A stretch of 64,000 nt of DNA from a virus. Position 1 is the stretch's first letter. Every line of letters begins with the position of its first letter. A program made the position numbers and the translations under genes. Below are positions 4,787-42,960 of this stretch, one piece after another. The stretch lies in IMG/VR virus record IMGVR_UViG_3300033148_007258, positions 3,997-67,996 of that record; one strand, given 5' to 3'. The notes under the pieces are model-generated. The model was not told the origin of the DNA. It searched no databases and worked only from the letters and a program-made list of their open reading frames with translations.

Positions 4787-4941
4787 ATATACACGATTAA
4801 AGGGCGGAGAAAGTTCCTTTTTTATTGATAATGAATTTTTTAAGGGGCATGGAGGGGGCGCGAAAAAAAGTTGAGAAATAGCTTTGAAAACAGTGATTGG
4901 GTTTTATATTAAGGTCGACGAGGTTGATAAAGGGAGTAGAA

Positions 4942-5322
4942 ATGAACAGGCGGAACGTATTAAAAGTTTTGGGCGTGGGGGCGTTGGCGCCGATGGCGTT
5001 TTTAAAAAACATATTTAAATTTGGCAACAAAAGGATCAGTGGCGATGTTGAATCGGGTCAAGTGCTGCAGATGTGCTGGGGTGTACATTTACATCCGGTT
5101 CACGGCAGATTGCCTGGTGTTCCACCTGGTGTTGATATAATTTCACCCAGGGGGTGCATACTCGCCGGGGAAATAAGGGACGTTGCTGTTGAACAACCAG
5201 ACCAGCGGTGTATGCTCACGGGGATAGACCTCCCTGATAAAATCTATAAATCTCGGCAACGTTTGTTGAATGATGGTTATAGGGTTGTATCTGGAGCAAG
5301 TGATGTTATTAGGGGTGTTTAA
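4942..5322 (+). CDS. Hypothetical protein with twin-arginine-like leader
   Basis: MNRRNVLKVLGVGALAP; GGAG RBS. Confidence 0.6.
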   Translation: MNRRNVLKVLGVGALAPMAFLKNIFKFGNKRISGDVESGQVLQMCWGVHLHPVHGRLPGVPPGVDIISPRGCILAGEIRDVAVEQPDQRCMLTGIDLPDKIYKSRQRLLNDGYRVVSGASDVIRGV

Positions 5323-6136: not shown

Positions 6137-6715
6137 ATGAACAGGCGAAAGGCTTTAAACGTATTAGGCGTCGGGGCATTAATGCCGGTTGCTACGTTTG
6201 GTGGGTTGAGTAAGATTTTTGGGTTAGGGGAAAAAGCGGGCGAATATGGATTGTCCAAATGGGGTAAATCTTTTCTTGCGTGTTCTTTTTATAGTCCGCA
6301 CTATAATTTTTATCATCGTTCATATTATGGTTTTCCAGGGATTATTGTGAACGATATGAATATGTCTATGATGGAGAACGTTGTTCGGTCTCTTTTGTTG
6401 GAATGTCCTCAATATTGGGATTATGAGCATAGCTATCGTGATTTTGGTAAGGGGGAGGTTGTAGTCGAAAAGGAGATAGATGAACGCAACCGGCAAATGT
6501 TAAGGGCATATCAAAGGGCTGGTATTAAGAAACGGATTGCATGGGAGCCGAATTTGGGGCGGTTTAGTAATGAAAACAACTGGGGCTGGATGGATGATAG
6601 TGAGCGGAAAATCATTCTACTTGACAGGGGTATAATAAAAATAGCACAGGGCAACGCGAAAAATATTTTAAGACAACTGCCGTTGGATAAATTTTTGGGG
6701 ATAAGCAATGGGTAG
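6137..6715 (+). CDS. Hypothetical protein with twin-arginine-like leader
   Basis: MNRRKALNVLGVGALMP. Confidence 0.6.
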   Translation: MNRRKALNVLGVGALMPVATFGGLSKIFGLGEKAGEYGLSKWGKSFLACSFYSPHYNFYHRSYYGFPGIIVNDMNMSMMENVVRSLLLECPQYWDYEHSYRDFGKGEVVVEKEIDERNRQMLRAYQRAGIKKRIAWEPNLGRFSNENNWGWMDDSERKIILLDRGIIKIAQGNAKNILRQLPLDKFLGISNG

Positions 6716-8348
6716 GGTTATGGTTTTGGGGATTGATGGATGCCCGGAAGAAATGCTAATGAAGTGGATGCTCGATGGCGGCGGTTGGTTACCGAATTTC
6801 AAGCGGCTGTATGATAGCGGTGCGTTTTTGACGATGCGAAGCACAGTTCCTTATTGGACGGTTCCGGCGTGGTTGTCGATGCTGACAGGGAAAACGCCGA
6901 AGCGGCTGAATGTGTTCGGGTTTTATCACCGGAAAAAGGAGTCGTATGAGAACGAACTGGTGAGGATTGACTGGGAAAAGCATAATCCTCTATGGCGGAT
7001 ACTATCGGATGCCGGAAAGCGGTCGATTTTTGTGAACGTTCCCACCACAGAGCCGCCAACAAAGGGATTTAACGGCGCGATGGTCGGCGGCTCTATTATG
7101 AACCCCGATCCACATAGGATAGCCTATCCGGCGGGTCTTAACCGGTGGCTGCTTGAGCAAGGATATGTCGCGGACGATTATGCGTCTCTTGCCAACAACC
7201 CTATTAAGCACGCCCGGAAAATGATTCGGGCGGATATGAAACGTATAGAGATAGCGAAACAGTTAATGGCCGATGTGTGGGATTTATTTATGTTCGCTTT
7301 TTATTTCAGCGACCCGATTCTACACCGGTTCTGGAAGTATATTGACGAAAAACATAAGGATTATGAGGATAAGGGAGAGTGCCGCGAGGTTGTTTATGAG
7401 TATTTCAAGATGGTCGACGACTTTCTGGGATACTGCCTTGACCGGTTGCCTGCGGACGGGAACCTGTTTGTGGTGTCGGATCACGGTATGGGACAGCTTC
7501 GGTATTTCGTTGACTTGAACAAGTGGCTATTTGACAATGGGTATATGGCGCTGAAAAACAAGGGGCGCAAGCGGTTCAATATGTATCATTTTCAGTATAC
7601 GAGACTGTATGACTGGTTGCGGCGGGCGTATCTGCCGTTCAGGGGTATTGGATTGGCTAAGGGGGTGCGGGATCGGGTATTTGGCGCGCTGCCAAAATGG
7701 GAACGCACCAGCGCTGATGTTGACTGGGAGAGAACGAGGGCGTATAGCTTCGGGAAGGATTCCATATATTTTAATTTAAAAGGACGGGACCCGCAAGGGA
7801 TGTATTGGACAAAAAAGGGAACTTTGGGTTTGTATGGCAAAATATTAAAGAGTTTGCATTCTTTGCGCGATCCCGATACTGGCGAGTGTATTGTTTGGGA
7901 TACAAAACACAATTGGCTTGTTGATACGATGCAAGCAAGGCTGTTGCCCGATATGTTTATTGAGTTCGAGGGCGGGTCGTACTATATCAGCAATCAGGGC
8001 GAGGCGGCGCCAGGGGGAAAGCTGTTTTATGAACGGAAAGAGACCAGCGCCGCGCATAAGCGGAACACGATATTTGTCGGGTACGGGCATGATATTGAGA
8101 AGAAAACGGGCGGTACGGTTGATATTTGCGATATTGCGCCGACCATATTGCACATGCTGGGCGTTCCGATACCCGATGACGTCGATGGCGAGGTGTTATC
8201 CGGGCTTTTTAGGGAAAAATCGCCGTTAAGGGGGCAAAAAGAGGTCAGAAAGAGCCGAAAAGCGGTGGCGCGGGACACGGAAGCGGCGGTTTCGGGCGAA
8301 TCGGACGCTGTGGTAGAGAAGCGGCTACGGGAACTGGGGTATTTATGA
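6708..8348 (+). CDS. Alkaline-phosphatase superfamily protein (type I phosphodiesterase/nucleotide pyrophosphatase-like)
   Basis: GIDG, STVP..TVPAW.SMLTG, SDHG, DIAPTILHMLG and C-terminal RLRELGYL motifs. Confidence 0.85.
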   Translation: MGRVMVLGIDGCPEEMLMKWMLDGGGWLPNFKRLYDSGAFLTMRSTVPYWTVPAWLSMLTGKTPKRLNVFGFYHRKKESYENELVRIDWEKHNPLWRILSDAGKRSIFVNVPTTEPPTKGFNGAMVGGSIMNPDPHRIAYPAGLNRWLLEQGYVADDYASLANNPIKHARKMIRADMKRIEIAKQLMADVWDLFMFAFYFSDPILHRFWKYIDEKHKDYEDKGECREVVYEYFKMVDDFLGYCLDRLPADGNLFVVSDHGMGQLRYFVDLNKWLFDNGYMALKNKGRKRFNMYHFQYTRLYDWLRRAYLPFRGIGLAKGVRDRVFGALPKWERTSADVDWERTRAYSFGKDSIYFNLKGRDPQGMYWTKKGTLGLYGKILKSLHSLRDPDTGECIVWDTKHNWLVDTMQARLLPDMFIEFEGGSYYISNQGEAAPGGKLFYERKETSAAHKRNTIFVGYGHDIEKKTGGTVDICDIAPTILHMLGVPIPDDVDGEVLSGLFREKSPLRGQKEVRKSRKAVARDTEAAVSGESDAVVEKRLRELGYL

Positions 8349-8910: not shown

Positions 8911-9381
8911 ATGGTAAACGTTTTTGATGTAGCTGAATATATTTTAAGAAGAAACAAGGGCAAGTTAATGCCTGTTTGGAGGCTTCATAAATTGTTGTAT
9001 TATTGTCAAGCATGGTCGCTGGTTTGGGACGGGGTCTCTTTGTTTGATGAAGACATCCATGCAGGGGATAATAGCCCCATAATCGAAAAGCTATATCAAT
9101 ATCACAGGGGGAAGTTTCATATAAGGAAAATAAAACGCGGCAATCCAGAAAACCTTACTCAAGAACAAATCGAGACGATTAACAGCGTTTTAGATTTCTA
9201 TGGTGAAAAATCATCACAATTTTTGGGTGATTTAATTCGTTCAGAAACCCCGTGGCGAGAAGCTCAACTGATTTTCTCGGAAAGAAAAAAAAGTCAACGA
9301 ATTATTTCGCCAAAGTCAATGGCAAAGTATTATGGCGCATTGCCGTTGATAAAAATTCAGGTGGTTGAGGAATTATTTTGA
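8911..9381 (+). CDS. Panacea/SocA-like (DUF4065) antitoxin-domain protein
   Basis: DVAEYIL, LHKLLYYCQAWSL, LF.EDI.A, ETPW motifs. Confidence 0.85.
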   Translation: MVNVFDVAEYILRRNKGKLMPVWRLHKLLYYCQAWSLVWDGVSLFDEDIHAGDNSPIIEKLYQYHRGKFHIRKIKRGNPENLTQEQIETINSVLDFYGEKSSQFLGDLIRSETPWREAQLIFSERKKSQRIISPKSMAKYYGALPLIKIQVVEELF

Positions 9382-9644
9382 ATAAAATTAAGCACGGAAT
9401 GAAAATATTTTTATATTTTTTCAGAAATTATGGAACATTTTTTGTTTTCAGTTGTATTAACTATAGTGGCAAATTAGGTTCCGGCTATATATTCCTCCAT
9501 TTTACCCCCGTTGAAGGTCTCCCCTCGGTTCGGGTGACAACGAATGATTATCCCCTCGGTTCGGGAATTAATATATACACGAGTCCACTGTGGCGCTCCG
9601 GGAAGCCGGAAAGCAAGTGGAAACCTTTATCATTGGATTCCTAA
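9378..9644 (+). CDS. Hypothetical protein
   Basis: ORF only. Confidence 0.3.
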   Translation: MNKIKHGMKIFLYFFRNYGTFFVFSCINYSGKLGSGYIFLHFTPVEGLPSVRVTTNDYPLGSGINIYTSPLWRSGKPESKWKPLSLDS

Positions 9645-9781
9645 AACGGGTTGGCTGAATTTGTCCGGAACCAATTTTGCCGACTCAGTATCCGGGGGGA
9701 ATTTTTTAATAACCGCTATTCATTCCGCATAGACGGAGTTGACGGCGGTTTTTTTTGTGCTGAAGGAGAAAACGATGTGCC

Positions 9782-10153
9782 ATGTATGCCCGGCTATGCG
9801 TCGTCCTGTTTGTGTTTTTGTGTGGGTGTGCCGCTTCTCAGCGTGCGGATCGCGCTCATTACAGCGATACGGTTATTATAGAAGCGGAGATTCTGGCGTG
9901 CAGCGATGCGAGCACGGCGTATGACCTTATATGGCGGCTGAGACCGTCGCTGATGTTTCGGGCGACGCGGGGGGTTCGCCGGAATTATCCGGTGGTTGTG
10001 TATTTAAACAATATGAGGCTTGTCGGTGTTAAATCACTTGAGTTAATTAGCGCGCGGGGGCTTCGTGAGATCAGGTATCTTGATCCGGGTGCGGCGACCG
10101 TGCGATATGGGACAGGGCACGCGGCAGGCGTGTTTGTGATTACGTTTTATTAA
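9782..10153 (+). CDS. Lipoprotein resembling a stand-alone TonB-dependent receptor plug domain
   Basis: Hydrophobic leader with LCGC lipobox-like site; AYDLI.RLRP, EIRYL...AATVRYG.G...GV.VIT plug-like motifs. Confidence 0.7.
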   Translation: MYARLCVVLFVFLCGCAASQRADRAHYSDTVIIEAEILACSDASTAYDLIWRLRPSLMFRATRGVRRNYPVVVYLNNMRLVGVKSLELISARGLREIRYLDPGAATVRYGTGHAAGVFVITFY

Positions 10154-10226
10154 CTAATAGGGAATATAGCCCAGTGCCGTTTACCGGCTCGATAGGGTTA
10201 ATCCCGCTGGGCTTCAAATATAATAG

Positions 10227-10502
10227 GTGATGTTTGGGTATAACATGAAAACATTAAGGGGATTTGGCGATTTATTTAGAGAGTTGCGCATTAAAAACAG
10301 ATATACATTAAGGGCATATTGCAGAAAATTCAATTATGACCCTGTTTATATTAGCGAACTTGAAAAAGGGAGAATTTCCCCGCCGAAAAACAGGGATGCA
10401 ATCGAAAATCATGCCAGGTCGCTTAATTTAAGTGAAGGATCAAGGCAATGGGCGGAATTTTGCAATCTGGCTGTAGAGGGTAGGGGGAAAATGTCCGTAT
10501 AA
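10227..10502 (+). CDS. XRE-family HTH protein
   Basis: FGDLFRELR...YISELEKGRISPP. Confidence 0.75.
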   Translation: MMFGYNMKTLRGFGDLFRELRIKNRYTLRAYCRKFNYDPVYISELEKGRISPPKNRDAIENHARSLNLSEGSRQWAEFCNLAVEGRGKMSV

Positions 10503-10626
10503 TTATGTTGATTTATAAAGAGGTTGTTGACAGTATAATTTATTAATAGCCCCGCGGGCGGGGATGTGAGGACGGGTTGTGGTGTAAAGCCAAAGCGCGG
10601 GGTTTTTTTGTGCTTAAAGAGGAACA

Positions 10627-10989
10627 GTGAATGTATGTTTATATGGAGTGGAAGTGATATTACCAAAGAAGATTAAGTGTGGTGGACATATTTACAGGGT
10701 TTTGTTTCCTTACCAGTTTAAAGAGCGGTCGGACTTATGTGGTCAAGCGGATCATGATGTTGCACAGATTAGGATTAGAAACAGCGATCCCTGTGGTAAT
10801 ACAGTGGTTGATTCACGGGTGTTTGAAGTGTTTGTACACGAATTATTACATGTTGTTGATTTTGTTTACAATGGAAACGAGTTAGATGAAGAGATGAACG
10901 AACGATTAGGGCAAGGTGTGGCGCAGGTTTTACTTGATAACTTTGATTTATACTTGAAAAATGGTCAGAAAATTATTGTGAAGCGGTAA
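10627..10989 (+). CDS. Small HExxH metallopeptidase-like phage protein
   Basis: VFVHELLH plus downstream EE. Confidence 0.65.
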   Translation: MNVCLYGVEVILPKKIKCGGHIYRVLFPYQFKERSDLCGQADHDVAQIRIRNSDPCGNTVVDSRVFEVFVHELLHVVDFVYNGNELDEEMNERLGQGVAQVLLDNFDLYLKNGQKIIVKR

Positions 10990-11026
10990 TGCGGGAAAAG
11001 CATGAAAATCGCCATTGAAAAAGAGG

Positions 11027-11191
11027 ATGATAATGAAATGTCCGGCGTGTGGCTCTCGTAAGATTAAACGGGCATATATAATCAGGGAGCATGGTAAGAT
11101 TACTGCTGACAAACATCGTTGTCAAGAATGTAATTATATTTTTGATGTTTTACAGGAAGGAAAAAACAATAAAAGACCTGTAACTGCGTAA
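11027..11191 (+). CDS. Zinc-ribbon protein (54 aa), possible late regulator
   Basis: MIMKCPACGS...HRCQECNYIF; directly upstream of the morphogenesis genes. Confidence 0.55.
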   Translation: MIMKCPACGSRKIKRAYIIREHGKITADKHRCQECNYIFDVLQEGKNNKRPVTA

Positions 11192-11358
11192 CGGGGACGT
11201 GTGTGGATGGTGCGGCGGCGTCTGCATTACAGGTTATTAGCTGGTGATGGGTGGTGAGGCTGCACACCGCCAGATTGCTCGTGAGGTACGAGGCGCGACG
11301 AAGCGCAGACCATCGGCGCTTATGATGCGTCCGCGGGTGATTGGGAGGTGCTTTTTTT

Positions 11359-11799
11359 ATGAGTATCGAAAGTGTAGAGAACAGGTATCATGTCAACTAT
11401 CAGACGGCAAAGGGTCTGAATCGCACGCTGTACGGGCAGACGGACAACGCGTCCCGCGATGCACAGCTTGGCGACAAGCTGACGCATATTGCGGGTAATG
11501 CTTGTTTACATGGTTCTGACGCTTCCTCGAACCAGGGCGGGTATACGAATAACAGGTTCGTATTCACCGACATCGGGCTATATCCCCCGTATGCCGGGCA
11601 CACTCAGTTGCTTGTATTTCTGAATGGCAACATTCAGTTCTACAGCGCTACAGCCGGTGCGGGAGACTACAACACGTCGTTTGACGAGGGAGAAGATGCC
11701 AGTACCGCAACAAGGTCAGAGCCAACTAAGGCAGGCTCTTACATACAGTTCAATTCAAGCCTTAACGACGAAGACGAAGTTATTATAATCGTTTTATAA
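11359..11799 (+). CDS. Putative virion-associated protein
   Basis: GGAGG RBS; LLVFLNG..Q...GDY...IQFN motif seen in phage structural beta domains. Confidence 0.55.
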   Translation: MSIESVENRYHVNYQTAKGLNRTLYGQTDNASRDAQLGDKLTHIAGNACLHGSDASSNQGGYTNNRFVFTDIGLYPPYAGHTQLLVFLNGNIQFYSATAGAGDYNTSFDEGEDASTATRSEPTKAGSYIQFNSSLNDEDEVIIIVL

Positions 11800-11805
11800 A
11801 GGGAG

Positions 11806-12684
11806 GTGACGAGAATGAATAAGTGCAGATTTTTGGTAGCGTTAATCGCAATCATCTCCCTGTGTGTTTTTGTTGGAGATGCGCAGGCGCAGAAAGTTGA
11901 GCTTGTGGGGACGTCGCATATAGATTCTGCTGTTGTGGGCGCGCTTCAGATGTACAATATCAGCGGTGCGGCAATAGGCATCGGGGATAACGTGGCGCTT
12001 GACAGCCGGTTTATTCAGATTTACAGCGGCGACTCTTCGGTATTTTATCATCAGGTCATTAAGGGCGCTAATCTGGCTGTTGATATTGATTCGCTGGGTG
12101 TTGGGGGGACGTATCTGAATCTTCCCTGCCAAATCGGTATTTATCACGGCGGCGCGGCTGTTGCGACGGATACGGTATATATATATGGCGATGTGTTTCC
12201 GAGGGGCGGAGGCACGGCGACATCTTCCGTTATCGATACGGTTGTGCCGATTGCCAACGACTCAATGGATGTTTCGCAGTATCTCTGGAAAAACATTGAT
12301 TCGGTGGACGCACAGTTAAATACTTGTCAAAAAATGACCATATTGGCGGCGCCGTTATTTGCTATTCAGGGCGGAGTTGCGACCAGTTATACTATCGGAA
12401 CCGCCATGGAGGCGATAGCCGACAGCTCTTACGGATTGGTGCAGTTGTATGGACCGCTTACGATGGGTGTGGTTGATGGCGCGACGCCCGCTGATTCAAC
12501 GGCAACGACTACGGTGCGGCGCGGCAATCTTCTGGTTCCTGCCGCAGGCGGAGATTTCAGTTTGACAGCCATTGCGGCTGGCGACTCGGTCAAGGTAATG
12601 CTGAATCTGATTCGCGGCGGCGCGGTTGCGGCTGAACTCGTGTTTGACAACAACACGCGGGCACGGGTATTCAAGAAGAAATAA
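11806..12684 (+). CDS. Signal-peptide protein with capsid cement/decoration-like motifs
   Basis: Leader ending AQA-Q; N.SG.AI..GD.V and G.A.EAIA....G.VQ..G motifs; many D-S/T sequons. Confidence 0.6.
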   Translation: MTRMNKCRFLVALIAIISLCVFVGDAQAQKVELVGTSHIDSAVVGALQMYNISGAAIGIGDNVALDSRFIQIYSGDSSVFYHQVIKGANLAVDIDSLGVGGTYLNLPCQIGIYHGGAAVATDTVYIYGDVFPRGGGTATSSVIDTVVPIANDSMDVSQYLWKNIDSVDAQLNTCQKMTILAAPLFAIQGGVATSYTIGTAMEAIADSSYGLVQLYGPLTMGVVDGATPADSTATTTVRRGNLLVPAAGGDFSLTAIAAGDSVKVMLNLIRGGAVAAELVFDNNTRARVFKKK

Positions 12685-12738
12685 TGCGAAAATCGGGGCG
12701 GGTTAATCGCCCGTCCCGAAGTTTCGGGATGACGACCT

Positions 12739-20423: not shown

Positions 20424-21650
20424 GTGGCTGTTTTAAGACCAACAGATGTTACTGAAGCACTAAAACGTCAACAGGCGGAAAAAGCAATAGAACTGATGAA
20501 CACGAGCGCACCAACATTCGGACGGATTCCGGTTGCTAAGGAAAAAATACGCGGTAACGGTATTTATTTATCGGTTAATACCACAGCACCCTGGGGTTCG
20601 ACCGGCGCTCGTAATGTGGATGAAACTCTGCCGATTGCACAGCGTTCGGCGTGGCAGAACCCCATTATCACGGCTAAATACCGGTATACGCGGGTTCATC
20701 TGGCAAATCAGTTGATTGCACTGGCACAGAACTATAAAGACGCTTATGTTGTTGCGAAAGCCAATGCGGAACTCGCCGCCATGAAGACTTTCTACAAGCT
20801 ACAGAATTGGCATGTTTTTCGAGATGCTAAGGGTACGCTCGCAGTGGGGTCTGAATGTCCGACTGCAACAACCATGACCATGGCTTCGCCCGATTATACG
20901 CGCGGGTTAAAGCCGGGTATGCTTGTCGATATAGCGGATGCGGGTACGGAAACAACGGCAAATGTTGAATCTATTACCATCAGCACCATTGATCGTCCAG
21001 CATACACAGTAACCTTCAGCGATACATGCAACACAAGTTTTGCTTCGGGAGATACCGTTGTGATGCAGGGCGACCGCGATACGACCGCCACGAAGAATAT
21101 TTGCGGGTTCAAATCCGGGATTATCTCTTCAGGCACGTATTTCGGCGTCAACGTTGGAACGTATGAAGAATGGGCAAGCAACGTCAAGACCTTTAGCGGT
21201 ACGCCAACGCCCTTGACGGAAATGAACATGTTTGAGGTTCTTAACCTTATTGAAGCGAATACAGGCAGTGGCGAGATGAACCTTGAGCTGCTTTGCAACC
21301 AGCCGGTCTATAACGAGTATTATTTGATGCACGTTCCTGCGGCGCGGTACGAACAGGGCAAGGCTATTAAGGGTGGACATACCGGGTTATACTTTCAGGG
21401 TCATGAACTTATCAAGGATACTGACTGTCCCGCGGATGATATGTTCTTCTATGAACCGACGACATGGAATAAGTATGAAGTTCAGCCCGATCAGTGGGGA
21501 GATTCAGGAGGCAAGTGGCAGAGTGAATCGTTGTCTGGCAATAAGGATAATGTTGGAAGTTACTTCAGGAGCTATATGGAAGTCGCATGTAAAGCGCCAA
21601 AGAAAAACGGTCGCTTAGGCGACATTTACACCAGCCAGACGGTGAAATAA
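20424..21650 (+). CDS. Major capsid protein (HK97 fold)
   Basis: 408 aa after scaffold; ETLP, GL.F.G..LI.D.DCP, AC..P.KNG motifs. Confidence 0.85.
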   Translation: MAVLRPTDVTEALKRQQAEKAIELMNTSAPTFGRIPVAKEKIRGNGIYLSVNTTAPWGSTGARNVDETLPIAQRSAWQNPIITAKYRYTRVHLANQLIALAQNYKDAYVVAKANAELAAMKTFYKLQNWHVFRDAKGTLAVGSECPTATTMTMASPDYTRGLKPGMLVDIADAGTETTANVESITISTIDRPAYTVTFSDTCNTSFASGDTVVMQGDRDTTATKNICGFKSGIISSGTYFGVNVGTYEEWASNVKTFSGTPTPLTEMNMFEVLNLIEANTGSGEMNLELLCNQPVYNEYYLMHVPAARYEQGKAIKGGHTGLYFQGHELIKDTDCPADDMFFYEPTTWNKYEVQPDQWGDSGGKWQSESLSGNKDNVGSYFRSYMEVACKAPKKNGRLGDIYTSQTVK

Positions 21651-26203: not shown

Positions 26204-29041
26204 ATGAATATGAAAACATTGTTATATATATGCTTGATTATGGCGGTGTCGGGCACGGCGTGGGGACAGACGGCGGTGCATGATACGAGCACCGCGTTCG
26301 ACGATGGATACATATACGCTTCTGATTCGCTTTACAGTGTAGCACGGGGGGCGACGACCGGCGATGGCGCTCAATCCACTTATCTTTGGTTCGGGCAATA
26401 CGATGATTTTGGCGGAGATAGTCTTATTGTTCGTGCGTTTCTCACCTTTGGTTTTGGCGATATTCCGGGAGGCGCAATCATTGATAGTGCAAAAATTATA
26501 TTTGATGGCAGGACCCCTAATTACGGTACTCATTTTTGGTATAATATTTATGTGGCGACATATTCTTCAATTGTTACATCAGAGTTTAATGCGTTCATTG
26601 GCTGGCAAAGCGGAATGCAGACATATACGGGAGATTCGTTGGCAATTTCACTTTATTCAGGGGATTATTCGGCAGACGACAACGTGATGTATATGAGGCA
26701 GTCAGGGCTTGATAGTATTACGGCTCACATCGGAGACAGCCTTAAATTGGTGATACTGAGCCGTGAAGATGTAACAGCAGACACCCCAACTAATGAAGAA
26801 AAAATACAATTTGAGGACAGCGCAAAAATAATTGTCTCATATCATACAGGGAGCGGTGATTCACCGCGTACTCTTACAAACTTTGATGTTTATGCGGCGG
26901 GACAGGATACGGCGCTTTATACCGTTCATGCCGATACCGGCGATTTTTCTATGTGGGATAGTATCATTGTGTATGACGCGACAGATACGGCGACAGTTTA
27001 CGGTGTATTCACGAGCGGGTCTCTGGCGGACACGGCGGGTACTCTAAGCAATTTGACGATCAATACTCTCGATACCCTGATTGCGGTGATGTACGCTCCG
27101 GTCGATACAATAGTTTATTCACTAACCGACACCATTACAACGCTTTCAGCGCCTTCCCAAAATTATCATTATGTACGCGCCGGAGCTACAGGTAATAATG
27201 ATGGTACAGACTGGACGAATGCGTGGACGGAATTACCTGCAACTTTAATACGCGGAGATACTTATTATATTGCAGATAGTACATATTCAGAATATACTTT
27301 TGACGATGCTGAAGATGACAGCACGTATATTTATATCAAGAAAGCAACCGAATCAGCGCACGGCACTGACACAGGATGGGACAGCTCATACGGTGATGGG
27401 CAGGCAATATTTACAGAGCAAATAAACTTTCTTAATGGATACTATATATGGGACGGTGTTACAGGCTCCGGAAGTGATACTACCTCATACGGGTTCAAGG
27501 TAACCTGGGATGGCGATACTACTGTTGAACATTACTTAGTAGGAATGCCAGGTATGGGTTACGGTACCTCACAGGTAGATCATATTACCTTTTCTCATAC
27601 GTCTCTGGCGTGTCCTGGTGAAGCTGCAAGTAACGGAGGAGCGCTGGCTAATATGAGTATTTATTCAGCTCCTCGCAATGCAGGTTATGCGGCAGAACAA
27701 ATAACTATATCAAATAATTATTTGGCATTCGGCTCTTCTAATATGCTTATTCGATTTTGGCGTAATTGTATTATAGAAGGCAATTATTTCGATGCTAATT
27801 GGAGTAGTTCACAAAATCATGGTCAGGCGATTTCTTCAGGGACAGATAGTACTGTAATATTAAGGAATAATACGTTTAAAGACCCATTGGTTTTTATATT
27901 AGGAGGGCATAATCAGGAGAACTATAATTGGAACATATATAATAATCTTGTTATTGGCGGGGATTTAACGGCAGGATTTGGTCTTGCGGAGTCATATCGA
28001 ACAGATGCTTTTAGAAACTGTGATATGTACCATAATACCTTTATCGGTGTTGACTTTGGGGGGCGAGGCGCATTGTTTGTGGGCACTTTGTCGGATACGA
28101 CAAACGCTACCAGCAGAGCTTACAATAATTTGTTTTATAATTGTATTCATCCACGTTTAGACAATGCTGATGCCACTGGAGACCCTGCAATCTATCACGA
28201 TTATAATATTTATTATAATTGTACCGGTAATTTTTATCCCGATTCAAATGATGTTGTTACAACAGGCGACCCGTTTATTGATTCGGCTAATGATGATTTC
28301 AGACTTAAGCAGGCGACTGCTGCCGGTGTTCCTCTTTCTTCTCCATATAATGTTGATATATTAGGTAATGTCAGAGGCGCCGATGGTTTTTGGGACAGGG
28401 GAGCTTATGAATATACCGCCGGAGGCTTTAATGTGTCCAATGTTACTGTAAGTGACACAACGTACCGGTCGGCAATTATTTCTTTCGATACGGCAGCAAC
28501 GACGGGGCTGGATTCGTTTGTTGTAATATCGGCGTCGGACAGCAGCGAGCTTGAGAATTTCTGGCATTCGACCAGCGGGATGCTGGACTCGGCAAAAACG
28601 CTGACGAAAGATTCTCTTTACAACTATCGGATTGTGGCGTACTATGACGGCGTTGACACTTTTTATACTGGTCCGCTCAGCTTTACGACGTTGGATGACC
28701 GATATGTCAACAATCTGCGGCTGACTGACATCGGGCTAACATCCTGTACGGCTGAATGGGACACGTCTTACGGCGCTGTTAAAACGGCATTTGATAGCAT
28801 GAGAGCAATTAACGATGCGGATTCAACACTCCTGAAAATGTTTGGAACGGATACGACCGGCGTTATAGATAATCTGACGCCGGAAACGACATACTGGATC
28901 AGGATCGTGGGATATGCCAGCGATACGTTGTACTATTCAAATAAAGGCAAAATAAGGACTCTTGGAAATGTTTTATACAGGGGGAAACCATCGGGCTGGA
29001 ACGGCAAGAAGCGGCATGGTTGGAACAGGGGCGGCGGTTAA
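26204..29041 (+). CDS. Large exported beta-rich protein (DNRLRE-like, beta-helix and FN3-like regions)
   Basis: Signal peptide ending TAWG-Q; YVRAGATG.NDG.DW.NAW start and DFRL...DRGAYEY end of beta-helix region. Confidence 0.7.
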   Translation: MNMKTLLYICLIMAVSGTAWGQTAVHDTSTAFDDGYIYASDSLYSVARGATTGDGAQSTYLWFGQYDDFGGDSLIVRAFLTFGFGDIPGGAIIDSAKIIFDGRTPNYGTHFWYNIYVATYSSIVTSEFNAFIGWQSGMQTYTGDSLAISLYSGDYSADDNVMYMRQSGLDSITAHIGDSLKLVILSREDVTADTPTNEEKIQFEDSAKIIVSYHTGSGDSPRTLTNFDVYAAGQDTALYTVHADTGDFSMWDSIIVYDATDTATVYGVFTSGSLADTAGTLSNLTINTLDTLIAVMYAPVDTIVYSLTDTITTLSAPSQNYHYVRAGATGNNDGTDWTNAWTELPATLIRGDTYYIADSTYSEYTFDDAEDDSTYIYIKKATESAHGTDTGWDSSYGDGQAIFTEQINFLNGYYIWDGVTGSGSDTTSYGFKVTWDGDTTVEHYLVGMPGMGYGTSQVDHITFSHTSLACPGEAASNGGALANMSIYSAPRNAGYAAEQITISNNYLAFGSSNMLIRFWRNCIIEGNYFDANWSSSQNHGQAISSGTDSTVILRNNTFKDPLVFILGGHNQENYNWNIYNNLVIGGDLTAGFGLAESYRTDAFRNCDMYHNTFIGVDFGGRGALFVGTLSDTTNATSRAYNNLFYNCIHPRLDNADATGDPAIYHDYNIYYNCTGNFYPDSNDVVTTGDPFIDSANDDFRLKQATAAGVPLSSPYNVDILGNVRGADGFWDRGAYEYTAGGFNVSNVTVSDTTYRSAIISFDTAATTGLDSFVVISASDSSELENFWHSTSGMLDSAKTLTKDSLYNYRIVAYYDGVDTFYTGPLSFTTLDDRYVNNLRLTDIGLTSCTAEWDTSYGAVKTAFDSMRAINDADSTLLKMFGTDTTGVIDNLTPETTYWIRIVGYASDTLYYSNKGKIRTLGNVLYRGKPSGWNGKKRHGWNRGGG

Positions 29042-29652
29042 TGAGACGGGCGCTGCGGTTCAAATACACGATAGGCGCCGCGATATTTTATATCGTTCTT
29101 TTTGCGGTGGTAATGACATTTTTTTGCGATGCGGCGGGAGCGCAGGTTAAGGATTTTGTGGGAAAGCCGGTTAAAGGCGCGTTTCTGCGGCTGACGGATG
29201 CGAACAAATGGTACGTACCGGGACTGGATTCATGGGTAGTGGCGCACAGTTTTTTTGACGGCGTAAAAGATGCAAAGGAACATTATCTTGGCACGAACAG
29301 ATACTTCAAAGGCAAAGAGGATTGGCATACGTATAAGGCGCTTCGGGATATTTCGCTCATTATGGCTTCGCTTAACATGGCGCGTTCGATTTTTATTGAT
29401 AAAATGTCTTACAAAGATTTTACGAAGAGCGCTTTGAGGGCGGCGCTGATACGGGCGTTGGTTTTCGGCGTCGTTTATAAGACGGCTAAGGCGGGGTTTC
29501 CGGCGTACAACGACCCGTTTTTCAACCGGCACAGCATATACTATCCGACCGTGCGGGGCGGGCGAATTGTGGACGGATACATCGGGACGGGGCGGTTTAC
29601 GACAATAAGCGTGGACTTACTAAAATTAGCGGGGATATGGAAGCTAAGATGA
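29041..29652 (+). CDS. Exported or membrane hypothetical protein
   Basis: Hydrophobic leader ending AAGA-Q. Confidence 0.55.
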   Translation: MRRALRFKYTIGAAIFYIVLFAVVMTFFCDAAGAQVKDFVGKPVKGAFLRLTDANKWYVPGLDSWVVAHSFFDGVKDAKEHYLGTNRYFKGKEDWHTYKALRDISLIMASLNMARSIFIDKMSYKDFTKSALRAALIRALVFGVVYKTAKAGFPAYNDPFFNRHSIYYPTVRGGRIVDGYIGTGRFTTISVDLLKLAGIWKLR

Positions 29653-31937
29653 TACAATACAAAAAGATAGCGGTAATCGGGGCGTGTCTGCTGGGACTGG
29701 CGTTATGGTGTGCGGCGGTTATATCGTTCGGTAGCACGGAAGGCGGGGACTTTGCAAATGTTACCAGTGGCAGTGTATCGGTTGCCAGGCTGACGGATAC
29801 ATCGGCGGTTGTTATTTATGAGAATAGTGGGACGCCCAAAAGGGGTGAAGCTCGATTCGGGCGGGTTTCAGGTGACAGTATTTTAATAGGAAGCGCATAC
29901 ACATTTCCTGCTGGTAATATCTCGAATTATGTGCCAGCGGTCTGCCGTTTGAACGATTCTCTGTTTGCTATTTCTTATGTGTCAGATATGACGGCAGATA
30001 AAATTTTTACTGTCGTCGGTATATATGAAGCGGACACGTTGAGATTTACTGATTCCACACTTGTTGATGGTTTGAACGTCAATGGTAATGGTGATGTTGT
30101 TCGCCTTAATGATACAACATATATACTTGTTTATGCTGCACATACCAACAATGGATTTACGCGTAGGGCAACCTATACTTCCGATGGCACGGTAACACTT
30201 GGAGATTCTACCGAGTATGCGGGTGGTGGAACTGTGGGGTATCAATCGGCCGTTGCTATAACGGATACCAGTTTTGTTTTTATAGATGTACAGGGGAGGG
30301 CATATATAGGATATTATTCTGCAACACATGGAGACACTATAACATATTCCCCCCGCTTTGATATTCAGCCCGCAAACATTAATTATGATGGTGATTTGTT
30401 ATTGTTGAACGACAGCACCCTTATTGCGGGTTATGTTGATTTATATGGTGCAATTGATACGGCAAAAGTGGCAGTCGGGCGTATTGTGAATAATGATTCG
30501 ATTTACTTTTATAAAGGTACTGCTTTTTATCATGGCGACCTTGTAACAAGTATGAGTCTTGCAAAAACAGGAGTTGATAATTTTGTTATTAATTATGAGG
30601 CTCCTGAAAATAATGGCAAAGCCGTTTCGGTAAATCTTGTAAACGATACGGCATTTATGTTCAGCGATACATCTACCTTCAGCATGACGGGTATGAACCG
30701 ATTTGCGGCGGATTATCTCACTACAAATAAGTATTTTTTTGGTTATGACTACAGTGGGACTGGTTATCTGACCATAGGCACAGTTACGGGGGGATTGTGG
30801 AATCCCTACGGTGAAACCATGACGCCTATCAGCAAGACGGCATTTCGGTTCAGCGCGAAAGATTCAAGCGGGACGCGGCTTGTGCTGTATCTCTACGGCA
30901 CGGCGGGCGCTATACTGGATTCCGTGCAGAGTGCGGGCGGAAGCGGCGCTTATACATGGACGGATACCAATACTGACGCGACGCGGGATTGGAACCAGTT
31001 ATGTACGCTGTATGTCGCCGTCAAGGAGAGTCTTGCATACGGCGGAGATACTTTGATGACGCGCATGATTCAGTATACTTATGAGGATAAACCGGCGACG
31101 TTCACGTACAAGGGGTGGGCGGCGGATTCGCTGAAGTTCACGGTCGCCGACGCCGACACGGACATTATGTTTGTGCTCTACGATACGACGCGGAGCGTTT
31201 ATTACGGTGAGGACGGGGATACTTCCAGCACAATGCTCATAGATACCGTCAAGAACTATGACGGCAGCGTTATCACGGGCAAGGTGGACACGGCGGGCAA
31301 GTATGTTCTGCGGCTCGGCGGCGTCAACCCTGACAGCGTTGTCAACTGGAAGGGATATTATACCGCACGTTCTTGCAGCCGGATCGACAGCTTTTTTATA
31401 GGCTACCGCGATTCTACCAGTTTGACGCTGTATGTTGCGGATACGACCGGCACGGGCATACAGTACCGCGTTACCAATGTTATGACCGGCGACATCGACA
31501 CTCTGGCGCGGACACAGGCGGACGGCGTGGTTGGTTCTTATACACTGGGCGGTCTTTCATACAATACGGTTTACCAGTTCAGTATCGTGCGAGACGATTC
31601 AGGGGCGACCATTCCGTCAAAGTTACAGGCGGATTCGCTTTTTACCGACCCGACCGAACCGACGCTGACGCTGACGCGGCTTAGCGCGGATACCGTGCAG
31701 GTAACGCTGGCGGGCAACGGCAATCCCGACAGCACCTATTATTATCTATTCGACCGCTATCAGCGGGACATGGTAGATACTACGGCTTATTATGTCGGAA
31801 AGACGGCATATCAGGCGAGTAAGTTCTGGGCTACGTTACAGTGGTGGAACGGGCGGAAGTTCGCTTACATGGATAATACGCTCCCGCGCATTATCAACGT
31901 GCGCTGGTCGTCAGGGATAACAAAACCAATCCATTAA
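29649..31937 (+). CDS. Large exported protein with about 7 propeller-like repeats and FN3-like C-terminal region
   Basis: Hydrophobic leader; repeats such as VARLTDTSAVVIY, VCRLNDSLFAISY, VVRLNDTTYILVY. Confidence 0.65.
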   Translation: MIQYKKIAVIGACLLGLALWCAAVISFGSTEGGDFANVTSGSVSVARLTDTSAVVIYENSGTPKRGEARFGRVSGDSILIGSAYTFPAGNISNYVPAVCRLNDSLFAISYVSDMTADKIFTVVGIYEADTLRFTDSTLVDGLNVNGNGDVVRLNDTTYILVYAAHTNNGFTRRATYTSDGTVTLGDSTEYAGGGTVGYQSAVAITDTSFVFIDVQGRAYIGYYSATHGDTITYSPRFDIQPANINYDGDLLLLNDSTLIAGYVDLYGAIDTAKVAVGRIVNNDSIYFYKGTAFYHGDLVTSMSLAKTGVDNFVINYEAPENNGKAVSVNLVNDTAFMFSDTSTFSMTGMNRFAADYLTTNKYFFGYDYSGTGYLTIGTVTGGLWNPYGETMTPISKTAFRFSAKDSSGTRLVLYLYGTAGAILDSVQSAGGSGAYTWTDTNTDATRDWNQLCTLYVAVKESLAYGGDTLMTRMIQYTYEDKPATFTYKGWAADSLKFTVADADTDIMFVLYDTTRSVYYGEDGDTSSTMLIDTVKNYDGSVITGKVDTAGKYVLRLGGVNPDSVVNWKGYYTARSCSRIDSFFIGYRDSTSLTLYVADTTGTGIQYRVTNVMTGDIDTLARTQADGVVGSYTLGGLSYNTVYQFSIVRDDSGATIPSKLQADSLFTDPTEPTLTLTRLSADTVQVTLAGNGNPDSTYYYLFDRYQRDMVDTTAYYVGKTAYQASKFWATLQWWNGRKFAYMDNTLPRIINVRWSSGITKPIH

Positions 31938-39900: not shown

Positions 39901-40774
39901 GGGACAGAGGGTTTTTGCTACCATATTCGAGAGCTTGATGGGCAAGTATTTAGGTGAAGATATTGATCTGAGTATGGCGGTAAAGGCGGCGGAAGATGCC
40001 ATACCCATAATTCCGACACAGTCAATTCCACCGTCAATAGATGCACTTTTGGGATATGCTTCCAATTACGATTTTTGGAAAGACGAGAATATATGGAAGG
40101 GCACAGAAGATATAAAACCGGAATTGGAATATAATAAATATACTAATCCAGCGTGGAAAAAAGCGGGAGAGATAACGGGGCTTTCGCCGGAACGTCTCAG
40201 TTTTGGGGCACAGCAGTTTTTTACTTACGGCAATATTTGGACGGCTATGGCAGGTGAGGGGTATAAACAGTTAAAGCAATTAACGCAGGGCGGTCCGGCA
40301 GGCGAAGATGAACGGAAGTTTGTTGAAAGGCTTATACACCTGCCTGTTGTACGCAGGTTTGTGAGTTCCACGTCTCCGTATCAGGAAATTAGAGATGAGA
40401 TTAAAGGGCTGAAGGTTGAGGAAAATTCCAGAAGAACATTGCAGAATCGCGAATTTGACAAACTTTTAGATAAGAAGTCGAACGACAGCACATTAAGGGC
40501 ATATCTTGTAAAACAATCACCAGAAGACAGAACACGGCTCCTACAAAGAATGAAAAGATACAGACGGCTTGAGGATGTTCCCGAAAGGTCTTGGTGGTTA
40601 CAGATTGCCGATTTAGCGCCAGAGCAAAGGGCGCAGGTTTTTTATAAGAAATATTCTCAAGCTGATGAATCCCAAAAAAGGGTGTTGTTGAAATATGCAA
40701 AGACGGTTCCCGGTATTACATCAGAAAGATTTCGGAAAAAATTTATAGAACTCTCAAAAATAAACAAGAGGTGA
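36998..40774 (+). CDS. Large internal virion protein (LPD38-like C-terminal region)
   Basis: TG.NP.F...N..RD, LDFSQGG, IPYLNA.VQG, N.DFW motifs. Confidence 0.7.
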   Translation: MNGQDKKKGLMSLVQRTFSGAAPSLPQAGQTDRQTQLKSLISKTFGGLPEPTQKPPSFGMPEIKPVTAPASSAAVAPSALRAQRAKSVKKRGGMTDEEWSRVLGIPIPEPEKQSLYKEIQSVLARGTSAATFGLSDLIPLPGGKGARDLQPKSTAGSLAGAGASVLGFIKGAPVKTASKLLEKAVPKTLVGAMGKSGATLGLASGLSEVLPAATTSDKPVEDILKSTATSGVIGALFPVSGAITNRVLRIPVALAVFDKIRAGTGQWFTADDVLRGLKDGTIDSKELANHAFNYLLESYFVTKQPALRRSLVALKKQAETTKKPIPRDKLESLFKKYKAEPETKEAPVEPPAKPEAPLETGKPVLTKPFAEKQVALEAKGVPSEGKADVSTMGASIEQARTMSEKTQKMFDKQRADIKQLKSGRYQRLKNSIKRATVDVSGNVKNALLKNGGEEGLRAVRRFNLRKGATSKAQAIINRSFDRVFKGLSKKDERLLYDVIQAKRTIAIDEYKPEMRHPGGLGGDAMKQWLNDPTKVPTEKRAMLEERANEYFNVMREQLGDLYKNGLLTQEQYNNLLAKGDYSSRKFIQHIDPERTGLDRQGRRISVPDSGIRALTSGSEKSLSNNARELLSEVVTRTQSRILRNNANKALYEVAKKNPNNGVVSLEKAIRTTKAGKPVYQKPTADFEKISVMIDGKHKEMLMPRDMAAEWTMNDPLINQTLATVIGWLSGSKILKPFATGLNPGFAVPNLPRDIAHIWVASEQYSSTLPVYLAQMARDLHTVKKDAFTRKGRWEKYIDEGGGMEFLTHQGRLKPSSRGVWGALQRFMGYVGETSEIGTRLALRERGIRNGLSPEEATAEARDYLDFSQGGSFVKALDSGIPYLNAGVQGTRGIVRAAQRNPARFAYQIAQLGTIASSLYLANHHVNKECWDAISDREKINNFIITTPFSYKDKNGNTRYIYFKIAKDQGQRVFATIFESLMGKYLGEDIDLSMAVKAAEDAIPIIPTQSIPPSIDALLGYASNYDFWKDENIWKGTEDIKPELEYNKYTNPAWKKAGEITGLSPERLSFGAQQFFTYGNIWTAMAGEGYKQLKQLTQGGPAGEDERKFVERLIHLPVVRRFVSSTSPYQEIRDEIKGLKVEENSRRTLQNREFDKLLDKKSNDSTLRAYLVKQSPEDRTRLLQRMKRYRRLEDVPERSWWLQIADLAPEQRAQVFYKKYSQADESQKRVLLKYAKTVPGITSERFRKKFIELSKINKR

Positions 40775-41346
40775 TGGGCATGAGTAAAATCAAAGACTCG
40801 AAAATGATTATTGTGGCGGCGCTGGTTGTCCTGCTTAGCGCGGCAGGGGTTACTGTCGGCGCGAAAAACAGAGCCAGCCCGGCGGCGGAGTACGGGTTCG
40901 ACCGCACTAATGTTTCTTATATCGTGTACAGTGAAACGGATTCGCTGGAGGGCACGGCTGATACATTATATAGCAATGTCTACGCGATTCCGCGGGCTGA
41001 GTATTTCTCATTGTCGGTAGTTCTGGACACGAATACTACGGCGAACAGCGGCGGCGTTCTGCCGAAAGTGGGGTTACAGTATGCCATATTGAGCACAAAC
41101 CGGCGGTTTCTCTTACAGGACGACAGCACGTCTATATGGTGTACGTTGACGGACAGCATTCGGAGTTTCGCGGATTTTACCAATACACACGCGAATTTCG
41201 ACAGCGACTTGAGCGGCAATGAATACGGCGAGATTCACACCGTTGCACCGGCGCCGTGTATTTATATTCTTTTTAGAATTTACACAGCGACAGGGCACGC
41301 GGCGGGCAGTGTTTATCGGTATGTCATGGAGTTTTTCCCACAATAA
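40771..41346 (+). CDS. Exported beta-rich protein with D-S/T sequons
   Basis: Leader IIVAALVVLLSAAGVTVGA. Confidence 0.55.
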   Translation: MMGMSKIKDSKMIIVAALVVLLSAAGVTVGAKNRASPAAEYGFDRTNVSYIVYSETDSLEGTADTLYSNVYAIPRAEYFSLSVVLDTNTTANSGGVLPKVGLQYAILSTNRRFLLQDDSTSIWCTLTDSIRSFADFTNTHANFDSDLSGNEYGEIHTVAPAPCIYILFRIYTATGHAAGSVYRYVMEFFPQ

Positions 41347-41368
41347 TGGTAGGGGGTGTGAGGGTGGA

Positions 41369-41629
41369 ATGGCAGAAAATGGCGGCAACAACAAAGTAAC
41401 CCTTATTGAAATCAAGGCGACTCTGTCACAGATTCAGGGTAAGCAGGAGGAAGCCCATCACGACATCAGGGAAATCAAGGAGGCTCTTTTTGAGCCGGAC
41501 AGGGGATTGTTTGCCCGTGTGAAAACGAATACGCAATTCCGCAAATCAGCCAGTAAGGTTTTGTGGGCATTTTTTATTGCCATAACAGGCGGAATTGCCG
41601 TTGTGCTACGAGAATTTATTCTTAAATAA
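41369..41629 (+). CDS. Small membrane protein, holin/XhlA-like
   Basis: Coiled coil plus C-terminal TM. Confidence 0.5.
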   Translation: MAENGGNNKVTLIEIKATLSQIQGKQEEAHHDIREIKEALFEPDRGLFARVKTNTQFRKSASKVLWAFFIAITGGIAVVLREFILK

Positions 41630-41657
41630 TCATCATCATTTAACATCGGGAGGCATC

Positions 41658-41921
41658 ATGGACAGTATTTTAGGATTTATCACAGATAACGTGCTGGCGT
41701 CGATTCTGTCGGCATTAGCAATCATTGGCGGTTACTTCTTCAAGAAGGGTTCAAAGAAAATCTTTACCGTTCTCTGGGAAGTGACCGAAGTAATCAAGGC
41801 GATATTGGACGCATTTCAGCTGGACGCCGATGGGAAGGTCGTTGTCACGAAGGAAGAAGTGCAGAAAATCAAGAAAGAGATTTCGGACGTACGTGCGCTG
41901 TTCGCAAAGCCGACTCCATAA
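41658..41921 (+). CDS. Small membrane protein, holin-like
   Basis: GGAGG RBS; N-terminal TM. Confidence 0.5.
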   Translation: MDSILGFITDNVLASILSALAIIGGYFFKKGSKKIFTVLWEVTEVIKAILDAFQLDADGKVVVTKEEVQKIKKEISDVRALFAKPTP

Positions 41922-42124
41922 TGAACAGGTTCAGGAAATACTGGCGGCTATTGAATCTTTTTAGGGTCATCCGGGATTTGACAAAACACCCTGAAAAGAT
42001 TAAGCAGAAGAAAGCGCTCATCACGCTTACACTTGGAATATGCGCGGCGCTGACGTACATTCTCGACCCTGATATTGTGCGGCAGATACAGGATTTTCTG
42101 CTCAGCATCATCAACGGGATGTAA
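41921..42124 (+). CDS. Small membrane protein
   Basis: One TM; TAATG coupling. Confidence 0.5.
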   Translation: MNRFRKYWRLLNLFRVIRDLTKHPEKIKQKKALITLTLGICAALTYILDPDIVRQIQDFLLSIINGM

Positions 42125-42249: not shown

Positions 42250-42960
42250 TTAAAACGAGATACCTAAGCTAAGGGGAATGTACTGCGTATTGTCATCGTC
42301 GGTAAAAATAATGCAATATCTGGCTTCGAGAAAGAGGTCTACATCGGGACTTATCGGAAAGAATAAACCCGCACCAATGTTCAGAATTGGCTTTGTTTCA
42401 CTGTCACCATCAAGTGAAAAGGAATCGCCTCTGTAATAAAAAGATATGTCATCTATTGAAAAATAGTTTATTCCCATTCCCCCCAAAAGATAAAACTTGG
42501 TTGAACTTTCTTTTGGTGATAATATTGTTTTCAGGCTTAATGTAGCAGATAAGGCAGAGGCGTTGGCACCACTAATTGTCAAGCCGGAAACATTTCTAAT
42601 ATTCACACCGGACTCATCGCTTACCCAATCAAGAAAACCATCTTCATCAAATCCAAACATAATATAATGGCTATTTATATTTAAATAGAGGGTTTTCGTT
42701 AGCGGTATATTTGTGCTACCCAAAAACCCAAACCCATTGTTCCAACAATCGCCGAATTCATCAGGTGCGGAAGGAAATGAATATATAAAACCGAACCCCC
42801 CTTTAGTTTTAACCCCTTCTTTGTTTTGAGTTTCTTGCTCATTGGTTGTTTGTATTATCTGCGGCGGCGGCGCAATAGCCTCAACTTTGGTTAGAGAAGT
42901 ATATCCGCATTGCACAAAACTTGCGGACACGAATAAAGCAACGATTAAAAAACGCTTCAC
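42250..42960 (-). CDS. Outer-membrane beta-barrel protein
   Basis: Signal peptide; alternating beta-strands; C-terminal LSLGISF. Confidence 0.75.
   Translation of the reverse strand: MKRFLIVALFVSASFVQCGYTSLTKVEAIAPPPQIIQTTNEQETQNKEGVKTKGGFGFIYSFPSAPDEFGDCWNNGFGFLGSTNIPLTKTLYLNINSHYIMFGFDEDGFLDWVSDESGVNIRNVSGLTISGANASALSATLSLKTILSPKESSTKFYLLGGMGINYFSIDDISFYYRGDSFSLDGDSETKPILNIGAGLFFPISPDVDLFLEARYCIIFTDDDNTQYIPLSLGISF

Follow-up and report, generated by a model that had tools for sequence, protein, structure and literature searches.

Tailed phages are thought to assemble entirely in the cytoplasm, and we know of no described tailed-phage assembly that is not cytoplasmic. Virion glycosylation is, to our knowledge, known only from mycobacteriophages, whose virions are glycosylated by the phage's own cytoplasmic glycosyltransferases. 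Two signatures of Bacteroidota proteins bear on the locus described here. One is the three-residue O-glycosylation motif D-S/T-(A/L/V/I/M/T) (hereafter the canonical sequon, with D[ST] for its first two residues), which, according to the accessible text of PMC12871550, is specific to or enriched in Bacteroidota and acts solely on non-cytoplasmic proteins, engineered copies of the motif being glycosylated as well. The other is the Bacteroidetes "Q-rule", by which the cut made by signal peptidase I (SPI) exposes a Gln; the available part of PMC5837995 gives Q-values above 48% for 332 of 334 Bacteroidetes species. Phage proteins that obey this rule are already in print, since Porphyromonas gingivalis phages encode them (PMC10367356, in the part accessible), and in Cellulophaga phage phi18:3 (NC_021794, 2892-8584) gp085-087, which are annotated as virion proteins from tandem mass spectrometry (MS/MS), have leaders ending in GYS-Q, VSA-Q and LNA-Q (the last hyphen marks the predicted cut here and below). 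Here, we describe a gene in a 64,000-nt window (the whole stretch of DNA analyzed, positions 3,997 to 67,996 of IMG/VR virus record IMGVR_UViG_3300033148_007258), whose 289-aa product combines a Q-rule leader with a dense array of sequons. Judging from its sequence, this protein very probably works outside the cytoplasm and is likely to be exported and O-glycosylated by a system of the host.

The open reading frame (ORF) at 11806-12684 on the plus strand is present, and its likely start is the ATG at 11815, not the GTG at 11806, giving a product of 289 aa. The gene and its parts are as follows.

11802..11806, plus strand: Shine-Dalgarno (SD) sequence GGAGG, 8 nt ahead of the ATG, read from the sequence
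11815..12684, plus strand: gene for the putatively exported, sequon-rich 289-aa protein, stop included (ORF, inspection of the start, family of eight)
11815..11892, plus strand: predicted Sec/SPI signal peptide, residues 1-26, predicted cut AQA-Q (leader in eight of eight family members)
11953..12003, plus strand: conserved N-terminal strand motif, residues 47-63, with N48 and V60 invariant (family alignment)
12124..12372, plus strand: predicted middle beta-rich domain, residues 104-186, with conserved sequons D119, D141, D149 and D162 (AlphaFold 2 (AF2), alignment)
12328..12681, plus strand: putative cement-like C-terminal domain, residues 172-289 (ESM Atlas, sub-threshold Pfam, weak hhalign)

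The leader comprises a basic n-region (MNKCR), 16 hydrophobic residues and a c-region ending DAQA-Q. Leaders were judged throughout by heuristic inspection of the n-h-c pattern, the small residues at -3 and -1 and the residue at +1, and by this inspection the protein has all the marks of a Sec/SPI substrate that follows the Q-rule. A leader ending in AQA-Q had been claimed in a preliminary description of this locus, together with the proviso that the true start might lie downstream of it. The next in-frame Met is M46, C-terminal to the invariant D37, and a hydrophobic N-terminal leader aligns in all eight members of the protein's family, so that the leader is no artefact of start choice and a start downstream of it is ruled out.

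This family was assembled from two protein collections, one of 1.84 billion representatives, in which seven relatives were found; with the query it numbers eight. Five came from a full HMMER scan of the 1.84 billion representatives (27-40% identity, 274-292 aa) and two more, P0007 and P0008, were added by cluster look-up and by searching with an alignment. All seven are metagenomic proteins, each on one or two contigs. The small-x-small motif followed by Gln is present in seven of the eight members, the query included, and all eight are enriched in D[ST] (10-14 of 19-26 Asp). The sequons at D119 and D162 occur in every member, as do D[ST] at D203 and D257; D85 is retained in seven of eight and D63, D141 and D149 in six of eight. 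At least six D-[ST] positions are thus conserved in the family, and these columns are kept despite only 26-38% identity among the eight members. Further searches returned little: a word-index homologue search recovered the query alone, a search with alignment A1 yielded P0006 and P0008 besides the query and nothing else, and shorter forms of the protein had no relatives at E ≤ 10. The viral contig collection held no relatives of the protein, of P0002 or of the terminase, the metagenome contig collection held none of P0002, and tblastn against 50,697 phage records gave no match to the protein at E ≤ 10. The Pfam, PHROG and NCBIfam family libraries likewise contained no match to it.

The protein contains 20 Asp, 11 of which are followed by Ser or Thr, and eight of these form canonical sequons, exactly as had been counted by hand in the preliminary description. 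Neither the 11 D[ST] nor the eight sequons were reached in any of 20,000 residue shuffles, and the control dipeptides were flat (E[ST] 0, expected 0.4; N[ST] 2, expected 1.7; [ST]D 1). By the published definition of the O-glycosylation motif, namely D-[ST]-[AILVMT] in a non-cytoplasmic protein, this putatively non-cytoplasmic protein has eight such motifs. A DNA-level GANTC motif was considered as the cause of the D-S excess and rejected; only 7 of 11 D[ST] codon pairs in this gene, and 11 of 41 in another sequon-rich gene of the phage (orf945, below), form GANTC, so the signal lies at the protein level. The two motifs between which a sequon-rich insert had been described, YNISGAAIGIGDNV (residues 47-60) and IGTAMEAIADSSYGLVQLYG (residues 194-213), are both present. 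Eight of the 11 D[ST] fall between them, six of these being canonical sequons; the intervening stretch is 133 residues long, and not the ~120 first given.

A survey of the 93 plus-strand ORFs of at least 60 aa showed that D[ST] enrichment is restricted to four of them, all with hydrophobic N-terminal leaders; in the other 89, 81 of 972 Asp precede Ser or Thr. The 289-aa protein is one of the four, and the remaining three are listed here.

26204..29041, plus strand: orf945, leader AWG-Q, 41 of 87 Asp followed by Ser or Thr, 29 sequons
29637..31937, plus strand: orf766, hydrophobic N-terminal leader or anchor, 34 of 63 Asp followed by Ser or Thr, 25 sequons
40771..41346, plus strand: orf191, N-terminal membrane anchor, 7 of 11 Asp followed by Ser or Thr, 4 sequons

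In the capsid, portal, terminase and large internal proteins, D[ST] is at or below expectation. The sequons of the 289-aa protein far exceed chance, and in this phage such an excess is seen in leader-bearing proteins alone. Since the enrichment occurs only in such proteins and the sequons are conserved, export and O-glycosylation of the Bacteroidota type are well supported as predictions. Clear SPI-type leaders that expose a Gln are found in the window in the 289-aa protein, in orf945 and in a 210-aa ORF (AGA-Q). The middle of orf945 is beta-helix-like by eye, of the tailspike or depolymerase type, with a weak FN3 match at residues 837-904, and the protein reads like a beta-helix tailspike or depolymerase, although it falls into no Pfam or PHROG family. 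An FN3-like region is also present in orf766 (residues 584-702; PDB phmmer E 3e-4). Neither orf945 nor orf766 had a match at E ≤ 0.001 by tblastn in the phage records. Besides the 289-aa protein, the enriched set includes the only beta-helix- or fibre-like proteins of the virion module.

Three other assignments of the 289-aa protein were considered and rejected. A lipoprotein cleaved by signal peptidase II was discarded for want of a lipobox, as Cys17 follows a Leu and lacks conservation among the family members. Cargo of the type IX secretion system (T9SS) was discarded for want of a sorting domain, there being no Pfam or NCBIfam family at E ≤ 0.1; these libraries presumably hold models of the T9SS sorting domains. 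An anti-phage defence protein was likewise discarded, with no PADLOC family at E ≤ 0.01 among 5027 models.

How does this locus compare with the systems described above? Like the Bacteroidota O-glycosylation substrates presented in the accessible text of PMC12871550, the 289-aa protein combines a secretion signal with the three-residue motif and is predicted to be non-cytoplasmic. It differs from the usual substrates in being encoded by a phage, in its unusually high motif density and conserved motif positions, and in a genome whose SD use is atypical for Bacteroidia. The P. gingivalis phage proteins resemble it by description in that a predicted SPI cut exposes Gln, whereas sequon enrichment or cement likeness is not reported for them in the available part of PMC10367356. 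Phage phi18:3 resembles the phage in the window as a podovirus of ~70 kb with a Bacteroidota host (a suggested one, in our case) and leader-bearing genes upstream of the terminase; gp085-087 are much larger than the 289-aa protein, and tblastn detected no similarity between phi18:3 and the structural proteins of our phage. With the mycobacteriophages the proposal shares sugar-coated virion surface proteins, but the route would differ, passing through export and a periplasmic system of the host. Neither a cement-like phage protein with a leader and dense sequons, nor export-dependent virion glycosylation, nor a phage that remodels the host envelope with heavily glycosylated proteins is reported in the literature covered.

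In the scenario that we infer for the export, cleavage, glycosylation, fold and capsid binding of the 289-aa protein, the protein would carry a cleavable Sec signal peptide that SPI removes at AQA-Q, leaving an N-terminal Gln in agreement with the Q-rule. The mature form would be a soluble periplasmic protein, O-glycosylated by the general system of the host at up to 8-11 D-S/T sites, and selection would maintain the leader, the +1 Gln and the sequon positions across a rare phage family. Its architecture would pair an N-terminal strand and a C-terminal domain of ~115 aa with a beta-rich insert of ~130 aa that displays the glycans. That it serves as an outer accessory of the virion, derived from a capsid cement protein, is a serious possibility on sequence grounds, though one that falls short of an even chance. 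In that case it would mature in the periplasm alongside the phage's leader-bearing fibre- or tailspike-like proteins and would meet the cytoplasmically built capsid only after the inner membrane is breached at lysis. The more general proposition, that cement-type and fibre- or tailspike-type proteins are exported by Sec, glycosylated by the host and docked onto particles at lysis, is put forward tentatively.

The cement likeness had been proposed from sequence motifs that recall DUF2190 (PF09956). This family, named beforehand, is the top Pfam match in two of the eight members, P0004 (15.0 bits; residues 174-249 against PF09956 positions 3-71, E 0.033) and P0002 (12.1 bits; residues 42-65 against positions 46-69, E 0.26), which is suggestive only, as both scores lie below the gathering cut-off of 24 bits. 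The 289-aa protein itself gave no PF09956 match at E ≤ 10 and, by the threshold set for PF09956, does not belong to that family; when the entire genome was searched in six frames, again no PF09956 appeared at E ≤ 10, so that no other cement candidate emerged. The protein and the PF09956 family share a weak sequence pattern, in which a strand rich in Gly and Asp lies close to the N-terminus and the core is of the type IG.A...G.V.V. In hhalign comparisons with a profile of 43 cement sequences, scores were 19.1 for the mature protein and 16.0 for the N part, neither of them attained by any of 60 column shuffles, and 16.6 for the C part, attained by 2 of 60; the probability given by hhalign was ~1%. 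VIA-align related model residues 43-247, with the insert skipped, to the capsid accessory chains of FCWL1, Pam3 and Sf11 (Z 4.4-4.8) and gave Z 3.9 to the KHP40 cement protein; its jelly-roll- or carbohydrate-binding-module-like matches to the middle domain (Z 4-5.5) were not significant. The ESM Atlas neighbors of its own low-confidence model (pLDDT 0.42) include cement clusters at template-modelling (TM) scores of 0.6-0.8, among them a 118-aa cluster over residues 37-286 (TM by row 0.82), and for residues 172-289 (TM by query ~0.6, feature score 0.92) 6 of 30 matches fall in the PF09956 set. On the whole we lean, by a narrow margin, toward a cement-type fold.

Several results weigh against a cement-derived virion role. 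Matching of family alignment A2 to sets of 8, 22 and 43 cement sequences gave E-values of 0.011-0.23 (0.02-0.23 against the set of eight alone, Bacteroidota prophage proteins from a PF09956 scan in which 10 of 401 genomes were positive) at probabilities of at most 4%, and a hidden Markov model of those eight gave the real family members no higher scores than residue-shuffled copies of them. The AF2 pLDDT was 35.4 for the protein alone and 48.0 with the eight-row alignment, reaching 60-69 at residues 104-186 only; Foldseek found no match at E ≤ 0.001 in BFVD or PDB, and all VIA-align Z-scores were at most 5.5, values of common occurrence. In profile and structure comparison, of the kind that the preliminary description had called for, the hhalign scores, just above most column shuffles, lean toward the likeness, but Foldseek and the low hhalign probability do not. 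By sequence, PDB held nothing relevant to alignment A2 or to the C part of the protein. Canonical PF09956 proteins are ~110 aa, and 42 of 43 sampled were leaderless, in contrast to 289 aa and a predicted cleavable leader here; the 289-aa protein further departs from them in its insert of ~130 aa, in a gene that does not adjoin the capsid gene and in its D[ST] content (11 of 20 Asp, against 8 of 61 in the eight Bacteroidota prophage members). The gene lies ~7.7 kb upstream of the capsid gene at 20424-21650, outside the head module and among accessory genes. In phi18:3, moreover, gp085-087 are depleted in D[ST] (5 of 41, 7 of 49 and 3 of 41 Asp) rather than sequon-enriched. The orf766 repeats, the SD use and the genome searches discussed below count on the same side. 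In favor of the virion role, the other sequon-rich, putatively exported proteins lie inside the virion module, and capsid decoration outside the cytoplasm appears less implausible by analogy, because phi18:3 has leader-bearing virion proteins detected by mass spectrometry.

An exported, O-glycosylated moron-type protein with a role in the host envelope and no place in the particle is about as likely, because the gene lies outside the head module, its neighbors are accessory genes and the phage is temperate; we regard the virion-accessory and envelope-accessory readings as nearly level, neither reaching an even chance. Such a protein might serve in superinfection exclusion, receptor masking or surface remodelling, with a cement-like fold either re-used or coincidental. 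Its gene sits among accessory genes (Panacea antitoxin, lipoprotein, helix-turn-helix (HTH) and zinc-ribbon proteins), ahead of those for packaging, and is flanked by a sigma-70-like site and a GC hairpin, and the phage also carries an outer-membrane protein (OMP) beta-barrel gene beside its repressor. The cement likeness is below significance, the established cytoplasmic assembly of tailed phages is a strong prior, and the Q-rule proteins of P. gingivalis phages are interpreted as envelope modifiers in the accessible text of PMC10367356. Set against an envelope role are the lack of a match among the 5027 defence models or in Pfam, PHROG and NCBIfam, a strong SD and an orientation on the same strand as the late genes (consistent with late expression), several weak but independent pointers to cement proteins, and the position of the remaining sequon-rich exported proteins in the virion module.

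It is improbable that the protein is exported with its D-S/T pairs purely structural, as turn or cap motifs of a beta-rich fold that stay unglycosylated, for instance in a host that lacks a D-S/T system. Some D[ST] could indeed be structural, as orf766 repeats a blade-like motif, LND[ST]x[FY], and in the 289-aa protein alone the preference for A/I/L/V/M/T at the third position (8 of 11; background 0.48) is not significant. In the four enriched proteins together, however, this position is occupied by one of these residues in 66 of 93 D[ST], against backgrounds of 0.39-0.48, and beta-rich cytoplasmic virion proteins of the same phage show no enrichment. The host signals are divided. SD-like motifs precede 30 of 66 first starts, against a background of 12-14%, and strong SD motifs 15 of 66, against 3-5%; ribosomes of Bacteroidia do not recognize SD sequences, according to published abstracts, and the SD use of this phage argues against a host of that class. 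The Bacteroidetes -7 promoter motif TAnnTTTG showed no excess (44 found, 53 expected), and the 401 sampled Bacteroidota genomes contained no relatives, prophage or otherwise, of the protein's family or of the capsid protein, the one 20-bit match to alignment A2, with an internal stop, being regarded as spurious. A methylase query of the genome contigs also gave no match. On the other side, the +1 Gln, a Bacteroidetes signature found in seven of eight family members and in three leaders of this phage, and the sequons point to a Bacteroidota host. A host from the wider Bacteroidota group but outside class Bacteroidia is possible and could reconcile the SD use with both signatures, because Ignavibacterium album also follows the Q-rule (Q-value 77%, with 55-67% for three Chlorobi-labelled outliers, in the available part of PMC5837995). 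Among sequencing runs, none of RNA was listed as a match, and a single DNA run labelled as sediment metagenome (share 0.08) yielded scattered low-depth pieces of 151-225 bases, mostly near-identical and some as low as ~93% identical; this run may be the sample from which the record derives and is at most a hint of the habitat.

We consider it very unlikely that the protein is not exported at all, its hydrophobic N-terminus being a cytoplasmic-face anchor or an assembly leader cut by a phage protease, given the classic n-h-c layout with small-x-small and Gln in seven of eight members, a sequon enrichment that is sensible only outside the cytoplasm and a Glu content of just 3 in 289 residues.

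The secretion signal and the many motifs for host sugar attachment have clearly been maintained by selection on proteins of this phage, one of which bears a faint likeness to cement. Should these proteins become part of the particle, tailed-phage assembly would gain an extracytoplasmic last step, and virions of Bacteroidota phages would carry glycans of the host type. In gut and sediment communities this would have consequences for the stability and adhesion of phages, for their recognition by the immune system and for their host range. Were the proteins absent from particles, the phage would instead be remodelling the host envelope with heavily glycosylated proteins.

The virus record of 67,996 bases carries direct terminal repeats. 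Its genes include a P22-type portal, a capsid protein (phrog_14242), a weak match to an SU10-type adaptor, a phage lysozyme and a large LPD38 protein, as well as an integrase, a divergent CI-like repressor, DnaB and DNA methylases. On this gene set the phage is temperate and podovirus-like, without a close cultured relative; its capsid protein is 21-25% identical to capsid proteins of actinobacterial phages (11 records).

Immediately upstream of the gene for the 289-aa protein, a leaderless ORF of 146 or 152 aa (11341-11799 in the shorter, ~146-aa form) ends 15 nt before it and is probably co-transcribed with it; the product has no family match, and part of it may resemble the N-terminal attachment domains of podovirus fibers. 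The sigma-70-like site spans 11762-11789, and promoter-like sites were no commoner than in shuffles (3 against 3.0). The GC-rich hairpin at 12695-12717, seen by eye, has eight pairs and begins 11 nt past the stop with no clear T-run; the terminator scan made no call there. About 200 nt after the gene, a 212-aa ORF overlaps the large terminase gene (phrog_38, E 4e-38).

The accessory stretch at 8911-11191 encodes the SocA/Panacea antitoxin-type protein (8911-9381), the lipobox protein (9782-10153), the HTH protein (10227-10502) and the zinc-ribbon protein (11015-11191), and a 120-aa protein with an HExxH motif is encoded at 10627-10989. The 210-aa ORF with the AGA-Q leader lies at 29020-29652, between orf945 and orf766, and shows no sequon enrichment. 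On the 3′ side of orf191 are small membrane-type ORFs (41595-41921 and 41921-42124), and 40771-42124 may form a spanin/holin-like lysis block. Minus-strand genes are limited to the CI-like HTH repressor (42984-43418) and the OMP beta-barrel gene (42250-42960; PF13505, E 6e-6, just below the cut-off), which looks like an outer-membrane moron expressed in lysogeny. Further upstream, two paralogous small proteins (4897-5322 and 6137-6715) carry twin-arginine-like leaders (MNRR..L..LGVGAL), and a type I phosphodiesterase/nucleotide pyrophosphatase gene (6708-8348; PF01663, E 8e-32) adjoins them.

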